DNA of 63,788 nucleotides, counting the filler, from Candidatus Rokuibacteriota bacterium (GTDB taxonomy: Bacteria; JAUVQV01; DATDCY01), in the NCBI GenBank assembly GCA_031406795.1. It is 5 parts of 5 records of this genome, joined end to end, with 100 filler letters (N's around TTAATTAATTAA, not from the genome) between each part and the next. Parts side by side here need not be neighbours in the genome. Positions count along the whole stretch, not along the records: positions 35,698 to 63,788 come from JANOHV010000091.1; 4 more parts are not named here. One strand, written 5' to 3'. Of the stretch, positions 39,640 to 63,788 are shown one piece after another (within the stretch, counting starts at the first letter, position 1; the number at the start of each line of letters is the position of its first letter). A program made the translations under genes and the position numbers. The notes beneath the pieces were generated by a model. The model saw nothing but the letters and a program-made list of their open reading frames with translations. It made no database searches and was not told the DNA's origin.

Positions 39640-39826
39640 GCGGCTGATTTGTTCTTGGCTGCTTCGGCGATGGCCACCACCGCGGGATGCTTGAGCTTTT
39701 TTTCCGCGGAGATGGCATAAAACCGTTCCCGCAGTGAATCGATAATCTGCCGACCCAGGAGAAAAATCTCTTCCGCGTACCGGTACACGACGTGGCCGGC
39801 ATCGGTCAAGACGAGCTCCTGTCCAT
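39640..39826 (-). pseudogene. nhaR: nhaR relic with two large internal deletions
   Basis: Three spliced segments matching 52210-53109: start, LVLTDAGHVVYRYAEEIFLLGR.I.DSLR, and ERFYAIS.EKKL.HPAVVAIAEAAKN. Confidence 0.88.
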
Positions 39827-39963
39827 CTCGTCATCGTTCACTTTATTCAAACAGTCAAATGCAGATTAGGAAATGGACCGAAAGGTGTGCATCCGCTATG
39901 TTCCTCGCGGATGGATACGACACGTCGGCGATCGACACCGCGCGGGTTTGAGGTAATCACGGC

Positions 39964-40296
39964 ATGAGGATACTCGTTCGGCATCCCGCCGGTGATGCAG
40001 ACGGCAGACTGGCGTCACATGCCGAAAAGCTTCTGCGACGGGTGCTCGATCGTTACTGCCTGTCGATCTCTCTTGTCCAGGTGAAGCTGAACACCTCGGC
40101 GGACGCCGAAGGGGCGCTCAATTCGCGGTGCCGGCTGGCGGTCAAGCTGCTTTCCGGCGATGCGGTCCGGGCTGAAGCATCCGACCGCGAAGCTGTGCTG
40201 GCTCTGTACCGCGCCACGGACAGGGTGGCATTTCTTCTGTGGCAACGCCTCAAGTCCTCGAATAGCCGGTGCAGCAGCGAACGCGTAGCGGACTGA
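39964..40296 (+). CDS. HPF/RaiA-like ribosome-associated family protein
   Basis: LASHAEKLLRRVLDRY...I..VQVKL...RCRLAVKL...VRAEA.D....ALYRATDRV; typical neighbour divergent from nhaR. Confidence 0.7.
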   Translation: MRILVRHPAGDADGRLASHAEKLLRRVLDRYCLSISLVQVKLNTSADAEGALNSRCRLAVKLLSGDAVRAEASDREAVLALYRATDRVAFLLWQRLKSSNSRCSSERVAD

Positions 40297-52209: not shown

Positions 52210-53109
52210 CTACCCGAAGAACTGGTTCTTGGCTGCTTCGGCGATGGCCACCACCGCGGGATGCCTGAGCTTTTTTTCCACCGAGATGGCGTAGAACCGT
52301 TCCTTCTGACCATCGACAAGCCCGATTTCCCTGACGCCATATTGTTTTGCTATTTCGCTCCGGATGATCGCCGGGGCGGCGAATACGCCGAGACCCTGCT
52401 GGCCGAACACTTTCAACAACGCACTGTCATCGAATTCGCCGACGATGCGCGGACGGATGTCATGAGCATCAAACCAGTTGGTCAGCAGTCCCCTCAGCGC
52501 CGTACCAGCGGTCGGCAGCAGGAACGGCGCGGTTTGCAGCGAGGCGGGAAAGTCCCGGCGGTATTTCTTTGCAAGCGAATCTACAGCGAACAGAATGATA
52601 TCGCTTTCCCTGAGAAGATGGTTGTAGGCCCGCACTTTAACCGAGGATCCGACGGGTGTGTCGGTCAACACGACATCGAGATTGTGGATGCTCAGTTCGG
52701 CGAGGAGTCGGTCGGGCCGGTTCTCGTGGCAGATGAGTTGAACGTCATCGGACAGACCCAAGACAGGCATCAGAAACTTCTTGGCCAGAAGCTTCGGAAA
52801 CACCTCGGCAATCCCGACATGGACCTTGAGCGGTCTTTTCGCCGGCTGATCCCGCAGTGAATCGAAAATCTCCCGTCCCAAAAGAAAGATCTCCTCCGCG
52901 TACCGGTAGACGACGTGGCCGGCATCGGTCAAGACGAGCTTCCGGCCCTGACGTTCAAAGAGCTTGTGCCCGAGCGCTTCTTCCAGGCGTCCGATCTGCG
53001 TGCTGATCGTGGAGGGAGACAAGCGCAGATTGTCCGCAGCTTTTGTCAGTCCTCCCTGTTTAGCAACCATCCAGAAGTACTGCAGGTGATGATAGTTCAA
53101 CCAGTCCAT
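52210..53109 (-). CDS. nhaR: LysR-family transcriptional activator NhaR
   Basis: WLNYHHLQYFWMVAKQG, YRYAEEIF.LG.E, VGEFDDSALLKVFG, ERFYAISVEKKLRHPAV.AI. Confidence 0.93.
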   Translation of the reverse strand: MDWLNYHHLQYFWMVAKQGGLTKAADNLRLSPSTISTQIGRLEEALGHKLFERQGRKLVLTDAGHVVYRYAEEIFLLGREIFDSLRDQPAKRPLKVHVGIAEVFPKLLAKKFLMPVLGLSDDVQLICHENRPDRLLAELSIHNLDVVLTDTPVGSSVKVRAYNHLLRESDIILFAVDSLAKKYRRDFPASLQTAPFLLPTAGTALRGLLTNWFDAHDIRPRIVGEFDDSALLKVFGQQGLGVFAAPAIIRSEIAKQYGVREIGLVDGQKERFYAISVEKKLRHPAVVAIAEAAKNQFFG

Positions 53110-53250
53110 GCCGCTGATCATTATTCGCTTTTATCAAACAGTCAAGTCCAAATTAGGAAATGGACCGAAACGTGCGGACCCGCTATGTTCGTCGCTGATG
53201 GATACGGCAGGTCGGCGTCCGTTACCGCGCGGGTTTGAGGTTTTCATGGC

Positions 53251-53423
53251 ATGAGGATACTCGTTCGGCATCCCGCCGGTGATGCAGACGCCAGACTGGC
53301 GTCACATGCCGAAAAGCTTCTGCGACGGGTGCTCGATCGTTACTGCCTGTCGGTCGACCGTGTCCAGGTGAGGCTGAACACGTCGGCGAACGCCGAAGGG
53401 GCGCTCAATTCGCGGTGCCGGCT
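53251..53423 (+). pseudogene. Truncated second copy of the HPF/RaiA-like gene
   Basis: Near-identical to 39964-40136, then breaks off. Confidence 0.88.
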
Positions 53424-53429
53424 CCGAAA

Positions 53430-53521
53430 CTGCATGGTTGGTACTACGACATCGGCACCGGAAAAATATTTTCGTATAACCCCGGGAACGATGAATTCGA
53501 GGCGATCTCGTGAGAGCTGCC
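53430..53521 (+). pseudogene. can: Orphan 3' end of carbonic anhydrase (repeat of 42874-42965)
   Basis: 92-bp near-identical copy encoding LHGWYYDIGTGKIFSYNPGNDEFEAIS*. Confidence 0.9.
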
Positions 53522-57846: not shown

Positions 57847-57870
57847 AGGATGGTGCGCGCAAGTTGCCCG

Positions 57871-58606
57871 ATGAGCGAGCCGACGCCGCGCTTCTGGAGC
57901 GTGTTCTTCGAGGTCTACGAGGCGCTGCCCCGCCAAGGCCCGGGCAAACGCGCCTGCGCCGCAAAGGCTCTCGGGCTTTGCCGGGATCTGCCGGCGGCGC
58001 CGGCCGTGCTGGACCTTGGCTGCGGCGTCGGCGGACAGACACTCCACCTCGCTGGGCTCACCTCCGGGTCCATCGTCGCCCGGGACAGCCATGCCCCAAG
58101 CATCGAGAAGCTCCGGGCGACGGTCGCGGAGCGCGGGCTTTCGGCCCGCATCCGCCCGGTGGTCGGCGACATGGCGCACCTGGACTTCCCCCCCGGGGAA
58201 CTTCGACCTTGTCTGGTCCGAGGGGGCGCTCTACAACGTCGGGATCGAAAGGGCCCTGCGGACGTGCAGCCCCCTGCTCGAGCCCGGCGGCTACGTCGCT
58301 TTCACCGATGCCGTCTGGAGAAAGGTACATCCCCCGCCGGAGGTGAAGGCGAGCTTCGATCTGGACTACCCGACCATGGGCCGGGTCCCAGACGTTCTGA
58401 CAGCCATCGCGAGATGCGGGTTCTCGCTCGTCGGGCACTTCACCTTGCCGGACGAGGCTTGGTGGGATGACTTCTACTCCCCGATGCAGCGGCGGATCGC
58501 GGAGTTGCGCGGCACGTACGCGGCTGACAGCGAGGCGCTGGCTGTGCTCGATCAGTTCGCGCAAGAGCCGGAGATGTACCGTTTGCACTCGGAGTACTAC
58601 GCCTAC
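57871..58606 (+). pseudogene. Class I methyltransferase, frameshifted at a C7G4 run and 3'-truncated
   Basis: LPRQGPG, VLDLGCGVG in one frame; FDLVWSEGALY...YYAY in another; the end is fused to the XRE relic. Confidence 0.8.
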
Positions 58607-58988
58607 CTTCCGGCCTCTTCTTCCTCCTCTCCCACTTCGCCAACCTCCCTGGATCAACCTTGAGGCGCCGGGCCCTGGCCTCCTGACTTAGCCCGCGGTA
58701 CCTCCGAATCCAGGTCAGCCGTTCCCCAGGCGTCCAGTCCGGGTCTTAAGGGGAGTAACCGAGGAATCCGATGATCTTCGGCCAGCAGTGGAAGGTCGGA
58801 GTGGCCTTCCCGCGCTCCCAGAGGTAAACGCAACACTCCGTCGTTCCGATTCGTTGCCCCACCTCCTGCTGGAGCAGTCCCAGCTCAAACCGTCTTTTCC
58901 TGAGGTGGTAGGCGATTGACCATAAGGGAGCATGTTGTTGATATGGTTCGGATTTCATTGCTTTGAGAGTAAAACAGCAGAAAGGCAA
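58606..58988 (-). pseudogene. Double-HTH XRE gene, copy 1 (in-frame TAA, end lost)
   Basis: LPFCCFTLKA...YHLRKRRFELGLLQQEVGQRIG...FLGYSP*DPDWTPGERLTWIRRY.GLSQE; homologous to 61565-61993. Confidence 0.85.
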
Positions 58989-58996
58989 CGTAACGG

Positions 58997-59473
58997 TGCA
59001 AGTGCGGCTTCCGGGGGGATCGCCTGCATGCCTGTCGCTGCACTCCGCACGATGTGGACGAGTACCGTTCGCGTATTTCCGGGCCGCTGCTGGATCGCAT
59101 CGACCTGCACGTCGAGGTACCGGCGTTGACATATGACGAAATCGCGTCGGCGCCGCAGGGGGAGGGGACTGCTGCAGTGAGAGCGCGGGTTGAGCGCGCG
59201 CGGGCGGCGCAACGCGAGCGCCTCAAGGGAGCGGCGATCTACTGCAACGCGCAGATGGGGGCGCGCGAGGTCCGGGAACATTGCCGCCACGACGAAGGCG
59301 GCGCCCGCCTGCTGGAAGGGGAGATGCGCGCGCTCGGACTCTCGGCGCGCGGCTATGCGCGGGTGTTGAAAGTTGCGCGGACGATCGCGGATCTGGCGGG
59401 TGAGCCGAAGATCGGCGCAACTCACGTCGCCGAAGCGATCCAGTATCGGGAGCAGCCGCGTCACATGGTTTGA
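58997..59473 (+). pseudogene. comM: comM/yifB (Mg-chelatase-like ATPase) 3' portion, copy 1
   Basis: CKCGFRGD..HACRCTP...YRSRISGPLLDRIDLHVEVP...LSARGYARVLKVARTIADL...HVAEAIQYR; begins at the CxCG motif, no 5' part. Confidence 0.92.
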
Positions 59474-59482
59474 TTCAGATGG

Positions 59483-59782
59483 TCACCCGTGGATCTTCAC
59501 GCCTACGCGATCAATGTGCTCTCGGAGCGCTTGGGATTGGATGGCAACCATCGCCTTGACATCGAAGCGATACGGCAACGGCAGGTCTTCCAACTCGGCG
59601 GCGATCGCTTCGGCAGCCAACTCGTCTTCGATACCTTCGAGCGCCAAGTCGATATCTGAAGCCGGTGAGGCTGTGCCCTTGGCGCGTGAACCGAACATGA
59701 CGGCGCCGGTGATCTCTCCGTGACGTTTGAGTACCCCACGGATGAGATCCATCTCCCGATCCGACAGACCGAATCTCGCCAT
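59483..59782 (-). CDS. Minimal nucleotidyltransferase (MNT) antitoxin
   Basis: MFGSRAKG....SDIDLAL, LPLPYRFDV. Confidence 0.92.
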   Translation of the reverse strand: MARFGLSDREMDLIRGVLKRHGEITGAVMFGSRAKGTASPASDIDLALEGIEDELAAEAIAAELEDLPLPYRFDVKAMVAIQSQALREHIDRVGVKIHG

Positions 59783-60195
59783 CAATCCGTCCTGTGTGCC
59801 ATGAACCAGCCATGCAGTGCGTCGATTGCTACGGAGTAGCGCTTGTCGATGGCCTGAACGGCCTTCTCGAAAGTCGCCGCATCGTAGGTGTGGGACAGCA
59901 CGTTCCGGTGGTCGAGCATGTCGATCCAGACTTGACCGTCGCCGAGAATCTTCGCGGCAAACGCCTCTTTTATAACCGTGCGCGGCGTGACCGGTTCGAT
60001 TACCGTGCCCTCGTTTTCAAGGTAGTCCTTGAGCGTCTTCCAGGCGAGTTCCAGGGCGAACTCAAATCGCTGGACGGTTCCCTCCTTCTCCAGGGCGGAC
60101 AAGGTGTCGATGCCGCGTTTCAGCGGTTCGCGCAAGAGAACAACAGCGCGGTCGAAATTCTGGAAGCGTTGTTTCCAGCGGATGTCACGGGTCAT
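59782..60195 (-). CDS. HEPN (HI0074-type nucleotidyltransferase substrate-binding) toxin
   Basis: DIRWKQRFQNF, VQRFEFALELAWKTLKDYL, RNVLSHTYD (RxxxxH). Confidence 0.92.
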   Translation of the reverse strand: MTRDIRWKQRFQNFDRAVVLLREPLKRGIDTLSALEKEGTVQRFEFALELAWKTLKDYLENEGTVIEPVTPRTVIKEAFAAKILGDGQVWIDMLDHRNVLSHTYDAATFEKAVQAIDKRYSVAIDALHGWFMAHRTD

Positions 60196-60322
60196 GCTCA
60201 ATCTCCTTCGCTTCCACTGTGGCGAAAACATACTACCCGATTATCTTGAATAATACGCACATCGAACACGCCAAGGAAATACACACCTCGTCCTCTGCCC
60301 GAGGTAGAAACGGAGCACGCTT

Positions 60323-61333
60323 TCAGTTGAACTGGCTCCGGTCCTTGATTCGTGCGGCTTCCTCCTGCCCCTGCATTTCCTCCCACGTCCGGCCCTTGCG
60401 CAAATCCTCCCAGCAGAAACGGACCCCCTGGTTGTCGTTCGGGTTGAGCGAGAGAATGCGCTCGAACACCATCAGTGCCTCGGAAGTGCGCCCGAGACGC
60501 CAGAGGCACAGGCCGTAGCCGTGGAGGCACCGGAGGAACGGCCGGTTGTAGATGCGGCCCCACAACAGCACGCCGTCGTAGAAGGGTGGCAACGAGAGTT
60601 CGCCGATGCGGATCCCGATCTCGTAGTGGACGAGTGCGCGTTTCGGCGATCGGTCGAATTCGAGGTTGCCGAGGTGCGCGTGCGCATCGATGCAGCGAAG
60701 ATCCCGGAGCAGCATGTCCATCAGCAGGTCACGGGCGCCATCGACATCGCCCACCTCCGCGAGTTCAGCCGCGACGCAGGTCGGATTCTCATCGAAATCA
60801 TCATCGTCGGGGAACGCGCCCCAGGCGATGGGGTCCATGCCGTAGCTTGCCCGCGGCTTTGCGGTGAGCTTTCTCCAGAGCGGGGCGTACGGTTCGGGAT
60901 TGCGATACGGCTCGGAGTTGGACCGCAGATTGCGGAGGTCATAGTCATGAAGCGGCAGGGGTGTGAGGCCGAGCTTCGCCACGTCGATGCGCGGATCCTC
61001 CATCTTGCCGCTGGCGTACGCGTCGCCGCGCCAGGTCCAGCGCTTGTCCACGACGAGTGTCACCAGGTGCCCCGGCGCGACCTCCGTGGCGTCGCCGGAG
61101 CGGAATGTGACCTGAACGTCTTCGGAGGGGATCCTGACCCGTGCCGAATTCCGATTGACCTTGAGGACGATCGCTTCGACGCGTTGCTTCTGATCGCCCA
61201 TTGTCGAAGTTTCGGGCAGGCCAAGAATCTCGGCCCGGGCGCGCATGACATGGAGGCGTGCAGCGGTGTAGGACTCTCCCGTCTTGCACTGGCGTTCGCG
61301 GATGATTGTCTTGAGATCTTTGTGCGCGGTCAT
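60323..61333 (-). CDS. TPR-containing protein with N-terminal 'IRER..KTGESYTAAR' domain and central beta domain
   Basis: GAGGAG RBS; C-terminal DAHAHLGNLEF...NRPFLRCLHGYGLCLWRLG...LNPNDNQGVRF. Confidence 0.85.
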   Translation of the reverse strand: MTAHKDLKTIIRERQCKTGESYTAARLHVMRARAEILGLPETSTMGDQKQRVEAIVLKVNRNSARVRIPSEDVQVTFRSGDATEVAPGHLVTLVVDKRWTWRGDAYASGKMEDPRIDVAKLGLTPLPLHDYDLRNLRSNSEPYRNPEPYAPLWRKLTAKPRASYGMDPIAWGAFPDDDDFDENPTCVAAELAEVGDVDGARDLLMDMLLRDLRCIDAHAHLGNLEFDRSPKRALVHYEIGIRIGELSLPPFYDGVLLWGRIYNRPFLRCLHGYGLCLWRLGRTSEALMVFERILSLNPNDNQGVRFCWEDLRKGRTWEEMQGQEEAARIKDRSQFN

Positions 61334-61377
61334 CGACGTCTCCTCGCTCTGCGCCGCCGTGGCCCCCGCCCAGAGGC

Positions 61378-61492
61378 TGCGCAACACGAAGATACGCACC
61401 CGCCCCGGCCGGAGGAGTGAACTCCCCTTTGCCCCGTTCGAGGGATCCTGCGGGGGAGGACCCACCGGGGTTGGGCGTCGGTGCCGCCGTAC
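61378..61492 (-). ncRNA. Candidate structured 5' leader RNA
   Basis: Nested stems GCGGCAC(C)GA/UCGUGUUGC and CCCCGG/CCGGGG enclosing hairpins GGGUCCU/AGGAUCC and GGGAG-UUCA-CUCCU; TTGACA at 61527-61522 upstream. Confidence 0.5.
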
Positions 61493-61564
61493 GCATGAAT
61501 TTGCCGCAACAAAGGTGGCGCTGTCAATCCCAATATTCTTTCTCCGCAATAGTTCCCACTGCCT

Positions 61565-61993
61565 TCAAGAGCCGATGTTGATGAACTCTATTAGTTGGGT
61601 CATGAATCTGCCTTTTGGCTCTCTCACTCCACTCTCCCACCTCGCCAGCGTCCCCGGATCAACCCGGAGGCGCCGGGCCATGGACTCCTGGCTCAGCCCG
61701 AGGTACCTCCGGATCCAACTCAGTCGTTCCCCGGGCATCCAACCCGGGTCAAAGGGGCAGTAGCCGAGGAATTCGATGATCTTCGGCCAGTAGGGGAAGG
61801 TCGGAGTGGCCTTTTCGCACTCCCAAAGGGCCACGCAACACTCTGACACACCGATTCGTTGCCCCACCTCCTGCTGGCGGAGTCCCAGCTCAAACCGCCT
61901 TTTCCTGATGTGGTACGCGGTCGACCATAGGCGAGCATGTTGTTGATAGGGAAGGGGTTTCTTTGCTTTCAGGCTGAAACAGCAGAAAGTCAA
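61565..61993 (-). CDS. Double-HTH XRE-family regulator, copy 2 (intact)
   Basis: IRKRRFELGLRQQEVGQRIGVSECCVALWE and IRRYLGLSQESMARRLRVDPGTLARWESG; TTG start abuts the comM junction. Confidence 0.85.
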   Translation of the reverse strand: MTFCCFSLKAKKPLPYQQHARLWSTAYHIRKRRFELGLRQQEVGQRIGVSECCVALWECEKATPTFPYWPKIIEFLGYCPFDPGWMPGERLSWIRRYLGLSQESMARRLRVDPGTLARWESGVREPKGRFMTQLIEFINIGS

Positions 61994-62001
61994 CGCAACG
62001 G

Positions 62002-62478
62002 TGCAAGTGTGGCTTCCGGGGTGACCGCCTGCGCGCCTGCCGCTGCAATCCGCACGATGTGGACGCGTACCGTTCGCGGATCTCCGGGCCGCTGCTCGAT
62101 CGCATCGACCTGCACGTCGAGGTCCCGGCGCTGGCTAATGAAGAAATCGCCTCGGCGCCGACGGGGGAAGGAACTGCTGCGGTGAGGGCGCGGGTTGAGA
62201 GCGCGCGGACGATGCAGCGCGAGCGCCTAAAGGGAGCTGCGATCTACTGCGATGCCCAGATGGGGGCGCGCGAGGTCCGGGAGCATTGCCGCCACGACGA
62301 AGGCGGCGCCCGCCTGCTGGAAGGGGCGATGCGCGCGCTCGGTCTCTCCGCGCGCGGCTATGCGCGAGTGCTGAAAGTTGCGCGCACGATCGCGGATCTG
62401 GCGGGTGAACGGACCATTGGGCTCATCCACATAGCCGAGTCGATCCAGTATCGGGAACAGCCGCGGCATCTAGGCTGA
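62002..62478 (+). pseudogene. comM: comM/yifB 3' portion, copy 2
   Basis: Same breakpoint and length as copy 1, diverged but open: CKCGFRGDRLRACRCNP...HIAESIQYREQPRHLG. Confidence 0.92.
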
Positions 62479-62681: not shown

Positions 62682-62930
62682 ATGAGCACGGCGGAAAAGA
62701 TCTACGAACACGTCAAGGCACTCCCCGAGACTGTAGCGCTGGAGATACTTGATTATGTGGAATTCGTGGAATCGAGGTCGCGGCGCACGGGAGCGGGTGT
62801 GTCAGCCGTCGGGTCTGATCGCCTGCGCAGAATGCGCGCCGCGTGCGGTGTTTGGCGTGATCGCGACGATCTTCCTGATCTTCGAGCCCTTCGTGGAGAG
62901 TGGGAGCGTGCGCGGAGCCAAAAATCGTGA
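62682..62930 (+). CDS. DUF2281-like VapB antitoxin
   Basis: EKIYEHVKALPE....EILDYVEFVE; CGVWRDRDDLPD.RALR.EW. Confidence 0.8.
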   Translation: MSTAEKIYEHVKALPETVALEILDYVEFVESRSRRTGAGVSAVGSDRLRRMRAACGVWRDRDDLPDLRALRGEWERARSQKS

Positions 62931-63316
62931 CGCCTGAGAATACCATCCTTGTCGACACCGATATTCTCATCGATTATCTTCGTGGTATGCCGCCGGCAAT
63001 CCAATATCTGGAGGCCTCGGGCGCTGATCTCTGTCTCTCCGTAGTCAATGTCGCGGAACTCCACGCGGGGGTACGTGATCATGAGCGCGAAGCGGTCAAT
63101 ACCCTCCTGGGATGCTTCACGATAGTCCCGCTGAACAAAGAGATTGCTGTTCGCGGCGGGTTGTTGCGCCGTGACTTCGGCAAAAGCCATGGCGTCGAGT
63201 TGGCCGACGCCCTCATCGCGGCGACGGTGGAGAGTTTAAGGTGCACCTTGGCCACTCTGAACCGAAAGCACTATCCGATGCTCTCTTCGGTGATGGTTCC
63301 CTACACGAAGGAATAG
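62927..63316 (+). CDS. vapC: VapC PIN-domain toxin
   Basis: ILVDTDILIDYLRG, SVVNVAEL.AG, LADALIAAT, LATLNRKHYP; GTGA overlap. Confidence 0.93.
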   Translation: MTPENTILVDTDILIDYLRGMPPAIQYLEASGADLCLSVVNVAELHAGVRDHEREAVNTLLGCFTIVPLNKEIAVRGGLLRRDFGKSHGVELADALIAATVESLRCTLATLNRKHYPMLSSVMVPYTKE

Positions 63317-63375: not shown

Positions 63376-63660
63376 TCAGATATCGCTAGGGAGAAGCTTC
63401 TGCAATCGGATCAGGAATCCACCCATCGGCTCCTTCTTCCCCGTCTCCCACTTCGCCAACGTCCCTGGATCGACCTTGAGCCGCGGGGCCATTGCCTCCT
63501 GGCTCAGCCCGAAGTACCTCCGGATCCAGGTCAGACGTTCCCCTGGCGTCCAGCCCGGGTCGAAGGGACAATAGCCCAGGAATTCGATGATCCTAGCCCG
63601 GAAGGGGAGGGTTGGGGAGGTCCGATTCGTCTCCCAGAGGCACACCGAGCATTCGGTGGA
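63376..63660 (-). pseudogene. Double-HTH XRE gene, copy 3 (5'-truncated)
   Basis: TECSVCLWE...IIEFLGYCPFDPGWTPGERLTWIRRYFGLSQEAMA.RLKVDPGTLAKWE; N-terminus and junction missing. Confidence 0.85.
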
Positions 63661-63788
63661 CCGTAACAGCAACGTAAGTCCTCGCCCTACCCCGACTGCA
63701 CATTTTCCTCGTCGGCAGGCGTCTTCGTGATGGCCGCCGGGTCACGGTCGAGCGCCGGTCCGGCCGGGCGGTCTACTGCAGGGTGTTC

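Follow-up and report, generated by a model that had tools for sequence, protein, structure and literature searches.

Does the G+C-rich stretch of DNA in front of a gene from an uncharacterised tetratricopeptide repeat (TPR) protein family act as an RNA, and, if it does, what could that RNA do? The question is raised by a 63,788-nucleotide (nt) stretch (hereafter the window) from Candidatus Rokuibacteriota bacterium (assembly GCA_031406795.1), whose minus strand carries, in order, the stop codon of an XRE-type helix-turn-helix (HTH) gene at 61565, a TTGACA hexamer, the G+C-rich stretch, GAGGAG, an ATG at 61333 and an open reading frame (ORF) that ends at 60323 and encodes a 336-amino-acid (aa) protein. 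A sequence-only reading had proposed a folded leader RNA here, paired with an RNA-binding N-terminal domain of the protein. The comparative analysis indicates that the leader is almost certainly a real structured RNA. Its family is new, being absent from Rfam 15, and as a known kind it is a structured cis-regulatory messenger RNA (mRNA) leader. The best overall explanation, to which the sequence comparison gives about an even chance, is a cis-acting translational leader controlled by the gene's own protein.

The protein family comprised 3145 proteins at E ≤ 0.001 among 7439 candidates, and at least 553 metagenome relatives were confirmed among at least 601 pattern matches; it occurs in genomes of myxobacteria, Gemmatimonadota, Gammaproteobacteria and candidate phyla, sampled from soil, sediment and groundwater. 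Three loci from named genomes and 80 metagenomic loci (the best 80 of the at least 553 relatives) were compared. All were gathered via the gene, and contexts away from it are visible only in the whole-genome and viral scans. A first upstream alignment revealed ~175 nt more conserved than the coding sequence, with the leader about 70–90% identical in nucleotides and the proteins 45–80% identical. The structure was assessed on A3, a MAFFT alignment of 34 non-identical upstream stretches fitted to no structure; the starting helices came from RNAalifold, and the outer pair of helix P1, the lower and closing pairs of P5 and a loop–loop helix were added by inspection. A small hairpin that RNAalifold placed inside the P5 loop was replaced by this loop–loop (kissing) helix and GG/CC closing pairs. 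An all-against-all column covariation score was too noisy and was left unused. The nested helices, without the kissing helix, were also built into a covariance model, R1 (161 positions, 33 pairs).

The resulting 40-pair structure was strongly kept in A3: 97.3% of 1356 cells were standard pairs, compared with 45.2–51.3% when the 3′ partners were shifted by 1–3 columns, 20 of the 40 pairs had changed on both sides (57 cells), and none of 500 shuffles reached any of five pairing measures. It counts against these figures that the structure was read from the same sequences, many of them close relatives (L020/22/23/24; the window and L005; L033/L039; L021/L031/L046/L049), that the slid and shuffled controls flatter the fold, and that cells overcount events. 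G.U pairs fill 92 of the 1356 cells (summed from the A3 pair table); read from the opposite strand they would turn into C.A, which assigns the fold to the sense strand. The sequence-only reading had staked its proposal on conserved or covarying structure upstream of homologues, and such structure is present.

Its architecture consists of five helices plus the kissing helix, and not of the two nested closing stems and two hairpins described by eye. On the minus strand, P1 is a hairpin, CGGCG/CGCC, at 61473..61489 (95.9% paired); its outermost pair is C.C in the window and none of its five pairs has changed on both sides, the helix being near-invariant, so that covariation is uninformative there either way. 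P2 (61470-61466 with 61436-61432; 98.8% paired, four of five pairs changed on both sides) encloses P3 (61463-61457 with 61449-61443; 96.6% paired, four of six changed), and the P2–P3 hairpin (61432..61470) holds a conserved asymmetric internal loop. The UUCA-loop hairpin that had been noticed by eye is P4, GGGGAG-UUCA-CUCCUC, at 61412..61427 (99.5% paired, two of six pairs changed on both sides); its loop sequence varies between loci, and one G.U position is kept in 32 of 34 sequences. P5 is a hairpin at 61350..61383 (61383-61375 with 61358-61350; 94.1% paired, six of eight pairs changed on both sides); GG/CC pairs (61371-61370 with 61362-61361; 95.6% paired, both pairs changed on both sides) form its closing helix.

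The 7-nt apical loop of P3, CCCCCGC (61450..61456), pairs with the 7-nt apical loop of P5, GCGGGGG (61363..61369). Two of these seven kissing pairs have changed on both sides in A3, where no cell is unpaired, and the helix shows no mismatch in 41 distinct rows of the R1-derived alignment although it lies outside the model. The two independent double changes are C>U with G>A in L033/L039 and G>A with C>U in L045; in addition, L012 carries a one-base deletion on both sides, and three changes yield G.U pairs.

The energy of a single sequence, by contrast, could not have carried this conclusion. Folded alone, 61333-61527 (minus strand) reached -87.8 kcal/mol, against -87.97 +/- 4.29 kcal/mol for 200 dinucleotide shuffles (z 0.04), and 102 of the 200 folded as well or better; the fold seen by eye, which was the stated basis of the proposal, thus cannot stand by itself, being at chance level in G+C-rich DNA. 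Its outer closing stem includes the -35 box, which is expected to be untranscribed, and the minimum free energy structure of the 161-nt RNA has only eight of 32 covariation-supported pairs. Single-sequence folding was therefore dropped as evidence.

No named RNA family was recognised here by the sequence-only reading, and the database searches agree. Rfam 15 (4227 models) was applied at gathering thresholds or at E ≤ 10. At gathering thresholds it gave no match in the whole window; at E ≤ 10 the scan of 60900-62100 placed nothing within the leader, and the best match in 61320-61530 was anti-hemB at 10.3 bits against a threshold of 49.5 (E 6.4). The sole match in a scan of six diverse relatives was a tRNA outside the leader, and a tRNA/tmRNA search found none. 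The motif was not described in literature searches or in the available main texts of PMC11109978, PMC8632094 and PMC5737381, whose supplementary motif lists could hold it.

Could the conservation be that of something other than a functional RNA, such as a site in the DNA itself, a coding extension that escaped annotation, or recent horizontal spread? The frame of the gene is open upstream to 61549, which gives a 408-aa reading and which the sequence-only reading had named as a possible objection; the copies may also be young. Two homologues, P0001 (380 aa) and P0063 (526 aa), have public gene calls that run through the leader, because its G+C-rich frame is open, and that thereby carry false N-terminal extensions. 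When the 408-aa reading was aligned with 20 homologues, most of them 320–345 aa long, all shared the start M of MTAHKDLK, which sets the gene at 60323..61333 (minus strand) with a start codon common to 20 of 20. Three-frame translations put the conserved upstream "peptide" in differing frames relative to the ATG between loci, and it is broken by stops and frameshifting indels (e.g. L012, L004 and L050); indels in the leader are compensated in the pairing, as in the L012 loop, and not in the reading frame. The shared start and the unconserved frame rule out an N-terminal extension or upstream ORF, and the leader is non-coding. The compensatory changes in half of the pairs, the paired deletion in the kissing loop and the strand-specific G.U pairs also speak for RNA, as does the keeping of the leader pairs while the adjoining coding region diverged to 45–80% protein identity. 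We consider it extremely improbable that no functional RNA is made here.

The limits of the RNA follow from the same alignment. The TTGACA box claimed earlier is present at 61522..61527 (minus strand) as a -35 box, and the T, G, A and C of TTGAC are near-invariant in flanks that are otherwise unrelated (34 aligned loci). A putative -10 hexamer, CAAATT, lies 18 nt after it (61498..61503, minus strand), with position 2 A and position 6 T near-invariant (columns A27 and T31 of A3). Conservation is unbroken from ~7 nt past this hexamer to the ATG. In a blastn comparison of the window with all loci, the upstream edge of similarity was sharp at 61489-61491 in roughly 30 loci, and L005, a 95% relative, was the only locus that shared the flanks of the window too. 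This edge coincides with the transcript start expected from the TTGAC promoter, and from it we infer a 5′ end at about 61490-61492. The leader would then be a 5′ untranslated region (UTR) of ~158 nt at 61334..61491 (minus strand; R1 match 61331-61491, 150.9 bits), close to the ~160 nt proposed and ending at the ATG. The ribosome-binding site named in the sequence-only reading is the Shine-Dalgarno (SD) sequence GAGGAG at 61340..61345 (minus strand), which occupies conserved columns in A3 and starts 5 nt past P5; the spacing of SD and ATG after the leader is fixed across loci.

The RNA and the gene are closely linked. Across the window and 83 loci, R1 gave 44 strong matches (56–178 bits), all of them immediately before a gene of the 336-aa family; the other two of the 46 matches listed, at 13 bits and E about 0.8, were taken as chance, the E-values being rough. 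The RNA was found in the window and in 43 of the 49 loci L002-L050, that is, in all that keep the 5′ end of the gene. Four of the RNA-less loci (L027, L029, L036 and L037) begin inside the gene, and the other two, L030 (1-240) and L042 (1820-3154), are 5′-truncated remnants with unrelated upstream DNA. Decayed copies also occur: L019 (340-454) keeps the 5′ domain and has lost P6 (a short variable hairpin), P5, the SD and the first codons, and L021 (524-1048) has an in-frame stop.

A sister subfamily (L051-L084) shares the same OB-like and TPR core, being ~45% identical from residue ~47 on, and in most of its loci the short N-terminal domain (N-domain) is replaced by a different ~130-aa domain with the motif DAYGDDEQLWAF (e.g. 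L058:1449-2666); these proteins have no Pfam match except TPR. None of its 34 loci has the RNA at E ≤ 1; for 28 of these, about 200 nt or more of sequence precedes the longer ORF. The RNA and the short N-domain thus appear to go together.

The window's own genome has only one RNA copy, two of the three named genomes have one each, and the edge-truncated copy of the third was missed by the scan; no RNA was found in five other genomes examined of the window's phylum or in four further genomes. Viral contigs gave one pattern match, again upstream of the same gene, and a blastn search of the leader against plasmid and phage collections gave no match. The 15 loci with flanks have no neighbour in common: among the adjoining genes are ribosomal genes with an ABC transporter (L003), AbiEi/AbiEii (L004), IS200 (L009), DndB-like, Uma2 and Cas4-Cas1 genes (L011), RhuM, PIN, resolvase and Fic genes (L015), and SNF2 helicases and integrase pieces (L023, L040). 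Because the neighbours differ in all 15 loci, the module probably carries its own control.

The protein itself could supply that control. It contains the N-terminal MTAHKDLKTIIRERQCKTGESYTAARLHV, the beta domain and the TPRs that had been claimed, laid out as a two-helix N-domain (~3-37), an OB-like beta barrel (~49-123) and a TPR domain (~173-336). An AlphaFold2 model built from 51 sequences has a predicted local distance difference test score (pLDDT) of 88.1 and shows helices at 7-18 and 22-36, a disordered linker, a beta barrel with small helices (about 50-135) and an all-helical C-terminal domain. The last matches dozens of TPR chains, among them 1w3b_A (Z 13.4, root-mean-square deviation (rmsd) 2.2 over 116 residues), and the protein scores 27.9 bits for Pfam PF13428 TPR_14 (cut-off 23.5); searches of the PDB by sequence and by fold with the whole protein found TPR only. 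Residues 1-175 modelled apart (pLDDT 79.6) matched only OB folds, over 49-123: RPA 8c5y_B (Z 7.5, rmsd 3.7, 72 aligned), uS17 5v93_q (Z 7.4), 3e0e_A (Z 7.3, rmsd 2.2, 65 aligned), PriB and SSB, over a range of Z 6.2-7.5, with a Foldseek E of about 0.005. In one homologue, RNase_II_C_S1 is matched below threshold (20.9 bits; threshold 26.6). The barrel may tentatively be called OB-like. NCBIfam added nothing for the 336-aa protein, PADLOC gave no family at E ≤ 0.1, and Pfam and NCBIfam scans found no nuclease, other toxic, enzyme or transporter domain.

The N-domain was proposed to be portable and RNA-binding, and the first part stands. A phmmer search with its 46 residues gave at least 150 cluster representatives at E ≤ 0.001, nearly all matching at their own N-terminus. 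Among 52 N-domain proteins scanned, 11 had a Pfam domain; three of these were TPR relatives, two had FHA, and PRiA4_ORF3, RNAP alpha CTD, BtrH_N, Clp_N, AHSA1 and DUF4932 with Big_5 occurred once each. Four genomes searched for further N-domain genes contained only the 336-aa gene. As for the TPR part, its last ~115 residues share ~40% identity with "tetratricopeptide repeat" proteins that are encoded by conjugative plasmids of enterobacteria (H6-H15; 30 Escherichia records); one of these plasmid relatives is labelled shiA, and a Serratia IncI1 example (L087:3818-4840) adjoins a DNA invertase.

On these grounds the following mechanism may be proposed. Transcription would start just past the conserved TTGAC(N18)nAnnnT promoter, and the RNA would fold into P1, the long P2–P3 hairpin, P4, the short variable P6 and P5, with the loops of P3 and P5 pairing in the G+C-rich kissing helix and so tying the conserved 5′ domain to the hairpin next to the SD. 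Two C/U-rich segments could pair with the SD, namely UCUUCG (61387..61392, minus strand), a candidate anti-SD lying in the loop and 3′ strand of P6, and CUCCUC, the 3′ strand of P4; the UCUUCG/SD helix would stack on P5. A pyrimidine-rich segment complementary to the SD region is present in every sequence. Six sequences with a variant SD or anti-SD prefer their own partner (0–4 of 35 swapped partners as good); the SD may be sequestered in this way. Ribosome access to its site would be set by the folded core, which the kissing loop holds in place. There are no terminator-like sites in 60200-62100, which makes translational control likelier than attenuation. Pairing of the start-codon region with the 5′ portion of the linker, as a closing stem, was tried and rejected (own -7.0 against swapped -7.55 kcal/mol; median rank 0.54).

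The likeliest effector would be the gene's own product, binding via the N-domain or the OB-like domain in an autogenous feedback by which a module of one gene that moves horizontally could adjust its own level whatever the host. The restriction to one gene family, and within it to the variant with the small N-domain, the self-contained mobile module and the OB-like domain all favour this. Autogenous leaders, such as those of ribosomal proteins and the thrS operator, are structured 5′ UTRs on the mRNAs of nucleic-acid-binding proteins. The present leader is likewise a structured, SD-adjacent 5′ UTR confined to one family predicted to bind nucleic acid, whereas its protein is neither ribosomal nor a synthetase and its module is mobile, not core. 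That the leader acts in cis on expression is quite probable; that the control is autogenous has, judged from the comparison, slightly less than an even chance.

Several observations weigh against this explanation. A consensus promoter scan called no promoter at the leader, the -10 hexamer being weak. The UCUUCG/SD helix is 87.8% paired, a value that 58 of 500 shuffles reach (slid, 51–78%), and CUCCUC/SD is 91.7% paired without any compensatory change. In an SD swap test, own partners reached -11.2 and foreign partners -10.3 kcal/mol (mean z -0.87 against a shuffled anti-SD), a weak preference overall. On the protein side, the OB matches fall below Z 8, a level where the match may reflect only a common arrangement, and the N-domain has no Pfam match even at E 10 and no Atlas hit, so that the second part of the proposal, RNA binding, is unsupported by any family or fold match. 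The association of the RNA with the short N-domain is seen in two subfamilies and may reflect a single ancestral event. Finally, metabolite-binding aptamers would just as typically combine highly conserved junction nucleotides with a tertiary contact.

That last point leads to a riboswitch, in which the P1–P4 5′ domain, locked by the kissing loop, would bind a small molecule or ion, and its occupancy would set the pairing of the SD with the C/U-rich segment. The size, the five helices, the near-invariant junction nucleotides and the long-range tertiary contact all suit such a device, a conserved and covarying aptamer-like domain is present in the 5′ UTR, and candidate anti-SD segments exist. 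Riboswitch classes usually precede several genes of one pathway; here all 44 strong matches stand before one gene family without an enzyme or transporter domain, albeit in a sample gathered through that gene, and the module passes from phylum to phylum and into differing contexts. Covariation lends no support to any mutually exclusive alternative helix. In cobalamin riboswitches of the env8 type, according to the available part of PMC10907184, a long-range loop–loop helix connects the conserved sensing domain, through one of its hairpins, with a second hairpin next to the ribosome-binding site, and the ribosome site is occluded through this kissing loop between sensing domain and platform. The same source states that uninterrupted kissing helices usually form without ligand, and that the cobalamin riboswitch relies on a bulge or a non-canonical pair to make its kissing loop respond to ligand. 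The leader resembles these RNAs, as far as they are described there, in its long-range loop–loop helix to the hairpin on the ribosome-binding side and in translation as the likely output, and differs in its seven uninterrupted G+C-rich Watson-Crick pairs without a bulge and in an SD that lies past the hairpin instead of in its loop. The leader also lacks the Rfam match of a cobalamin riboswitch, and its downstream gene is unrelated to cobalamin. Because its seven uninterrupted pairs are of the kind that usually forms independently of ligand, we read the kissing loop as a fixed architectural clamp and not as the switch. A riboswitch is on balance unlikely. An equally unlikely, bolder version would be a new sensory RNA class, either a riboswitch for a signal as yet unnamed or an RNA "lock" opened by a phage- or stress-derived cue, that gates a nucleic-acid-binding OB-TPR effector within a mobile one-gene module spread between phyla through defence islands or cassette arrays.

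The RNA could instead be a working partner of the protein: a stable, maybe processed piece of the leader that assembles with the OB-TPR protein into a ribonucleoprotein, or that neutralises this protein in an RNA-antitoxin-like way, within a mobile defence or stress module. The RNA and the gene always travel as one unit, and toxin–antitoxin, defence or mobile neighbours occur in about 9 of 15 loci, a count that lacks a background control. Transcript data are also relevant here. Twenty public runs share words with the stretch, three of which are RNA libraries and were compared with 60900-61650. Two of them, metatranscriptomes from two studies, each gave one short contig on the leader and not on the coding region, 61340-61537 (3 differences) and 61356-61582 (12 differences), and the third gave a contig over part of the coding region. 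These contigs, which may stem from DNA carry-over and show neither ends nor abundance nor transcription, are a hint of expression at most. Both leader contigs extend upstream of the 5′ end placed above, which counts against that placement and is perhaps read-through from the same-strand XRE gene. The SD and ATG lie within the conserved unit, as expected of an mRNA leader. Type III toxin–antitoxin systems (ToxIN-like) consist of tandem RNA repeats, a terminator and then an endoribonuclease gene. The module resembles them as a small mobile structured RNA with one protein gene, often beside defence genes, and departs from them in having no tandem repeats (Tandem Repeats Finder returned no row for 61250-61650), no terminator-like site, no endoribonuclease or other nuclease or toxic domain and no PADLOC match. 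The RNA-antitoxin-like pair suggested by the sequence-only reading is thus not borne out, and an RNA partner of any kind seems distinctly improbable.

That reading had also described the RNA and gene as cargo in a defence-type unit. This fits the window, where the gene shares a cassette-like array with HEPN/MNT and PIN pairs; at other loci, promoter, leader and gene make up a self-contained module of a single gene in widely varying surroundings. The window gene sits between two copies of a ~850-bp unit consisting of a two-HTH XRE-type gene (minus strand) head-to-head with an intact-looking 139-aa C-terminal ComM/Mg-chelatase fragment (plus strand). Copies of the unit, 63–84% identical, lie at 58627-59473, 61565-62478 and 63376-63742 and on contigs C85, C69 and C203; altogether there are about 8–10 copies on four contigs, with differing small cargo between them (toxin–antitoxin pairs and the OB-TPR gene). 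The arrangement suggests an array of cassettes, or small elements that have accumulated in tandem at comM, and no integrase or full-length comM was seen in it. Downstream of the gene, 59483-60195 (minus strand) encodes an MNT-type nucleotidyltransferase and a HI0074/HEPN-type substrate-binding subunit, and in the next unit 62682-63316 (plus strand) encodes a DUF2281-like protein and a PIN-domain protein; both are toxin–antitoxin-like pairs.

A further possibility is a cis-acting leader without a dedicated effector, for example a thermosensor, an element for mRNA stability or ribosome standby, or a site recognised by a small RNA of the host or by a general RNA-binding protein. The structured leader does adjoin the SD. 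Its conservation and its tertiary contact exceed the needs of a simple thermometer or stabiliser, and a host-specific trans factor fits poorly with the spread across phyla; we regard this possibility, too, as improbable. A precedent for a motif tied to one gene is Fibro-purF, which the available text of PMC7668255 describes as a rare structured motif upstream of one gene only and a regulatory candidate. The present leader shares this rarity and the single downstream gene; compared with Fibro-purF as described there, it is larger, has a kissing loop, precedes a gene that is not a metabolic enzyme, and extends over several phyla, in metagenomes of soil, sediment and groundwater.

The rest of the window shows some further features. 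Positions 35698-63788 map to contig C212, and 1-35697 are off that contig. Direct repeats of 92–300 nt (87–98% identity; families D2, D4, D5 and D6) link 39651-40130 with 52225-53521, ~13 kb apart, and suggest a duplicated gene or operon segment. Overlapping long ORFs at 57850-58470 and 58016-58663 (plus strand), in different frames, may represent a single gene with a frameshift.

Riboswitches, ribozymes and protein-binding operators have been found among structured bacterial RNAs that show tertiary contacts and clear covariation, and the leader described here precedes an abundant, uncharacterised protein family. The false extensions of P0001 and P0063 show gene callers translating a leader RNA. 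Because the leader and the gene together make a compact unit that has its own promoter, the functions of both may be approached together.

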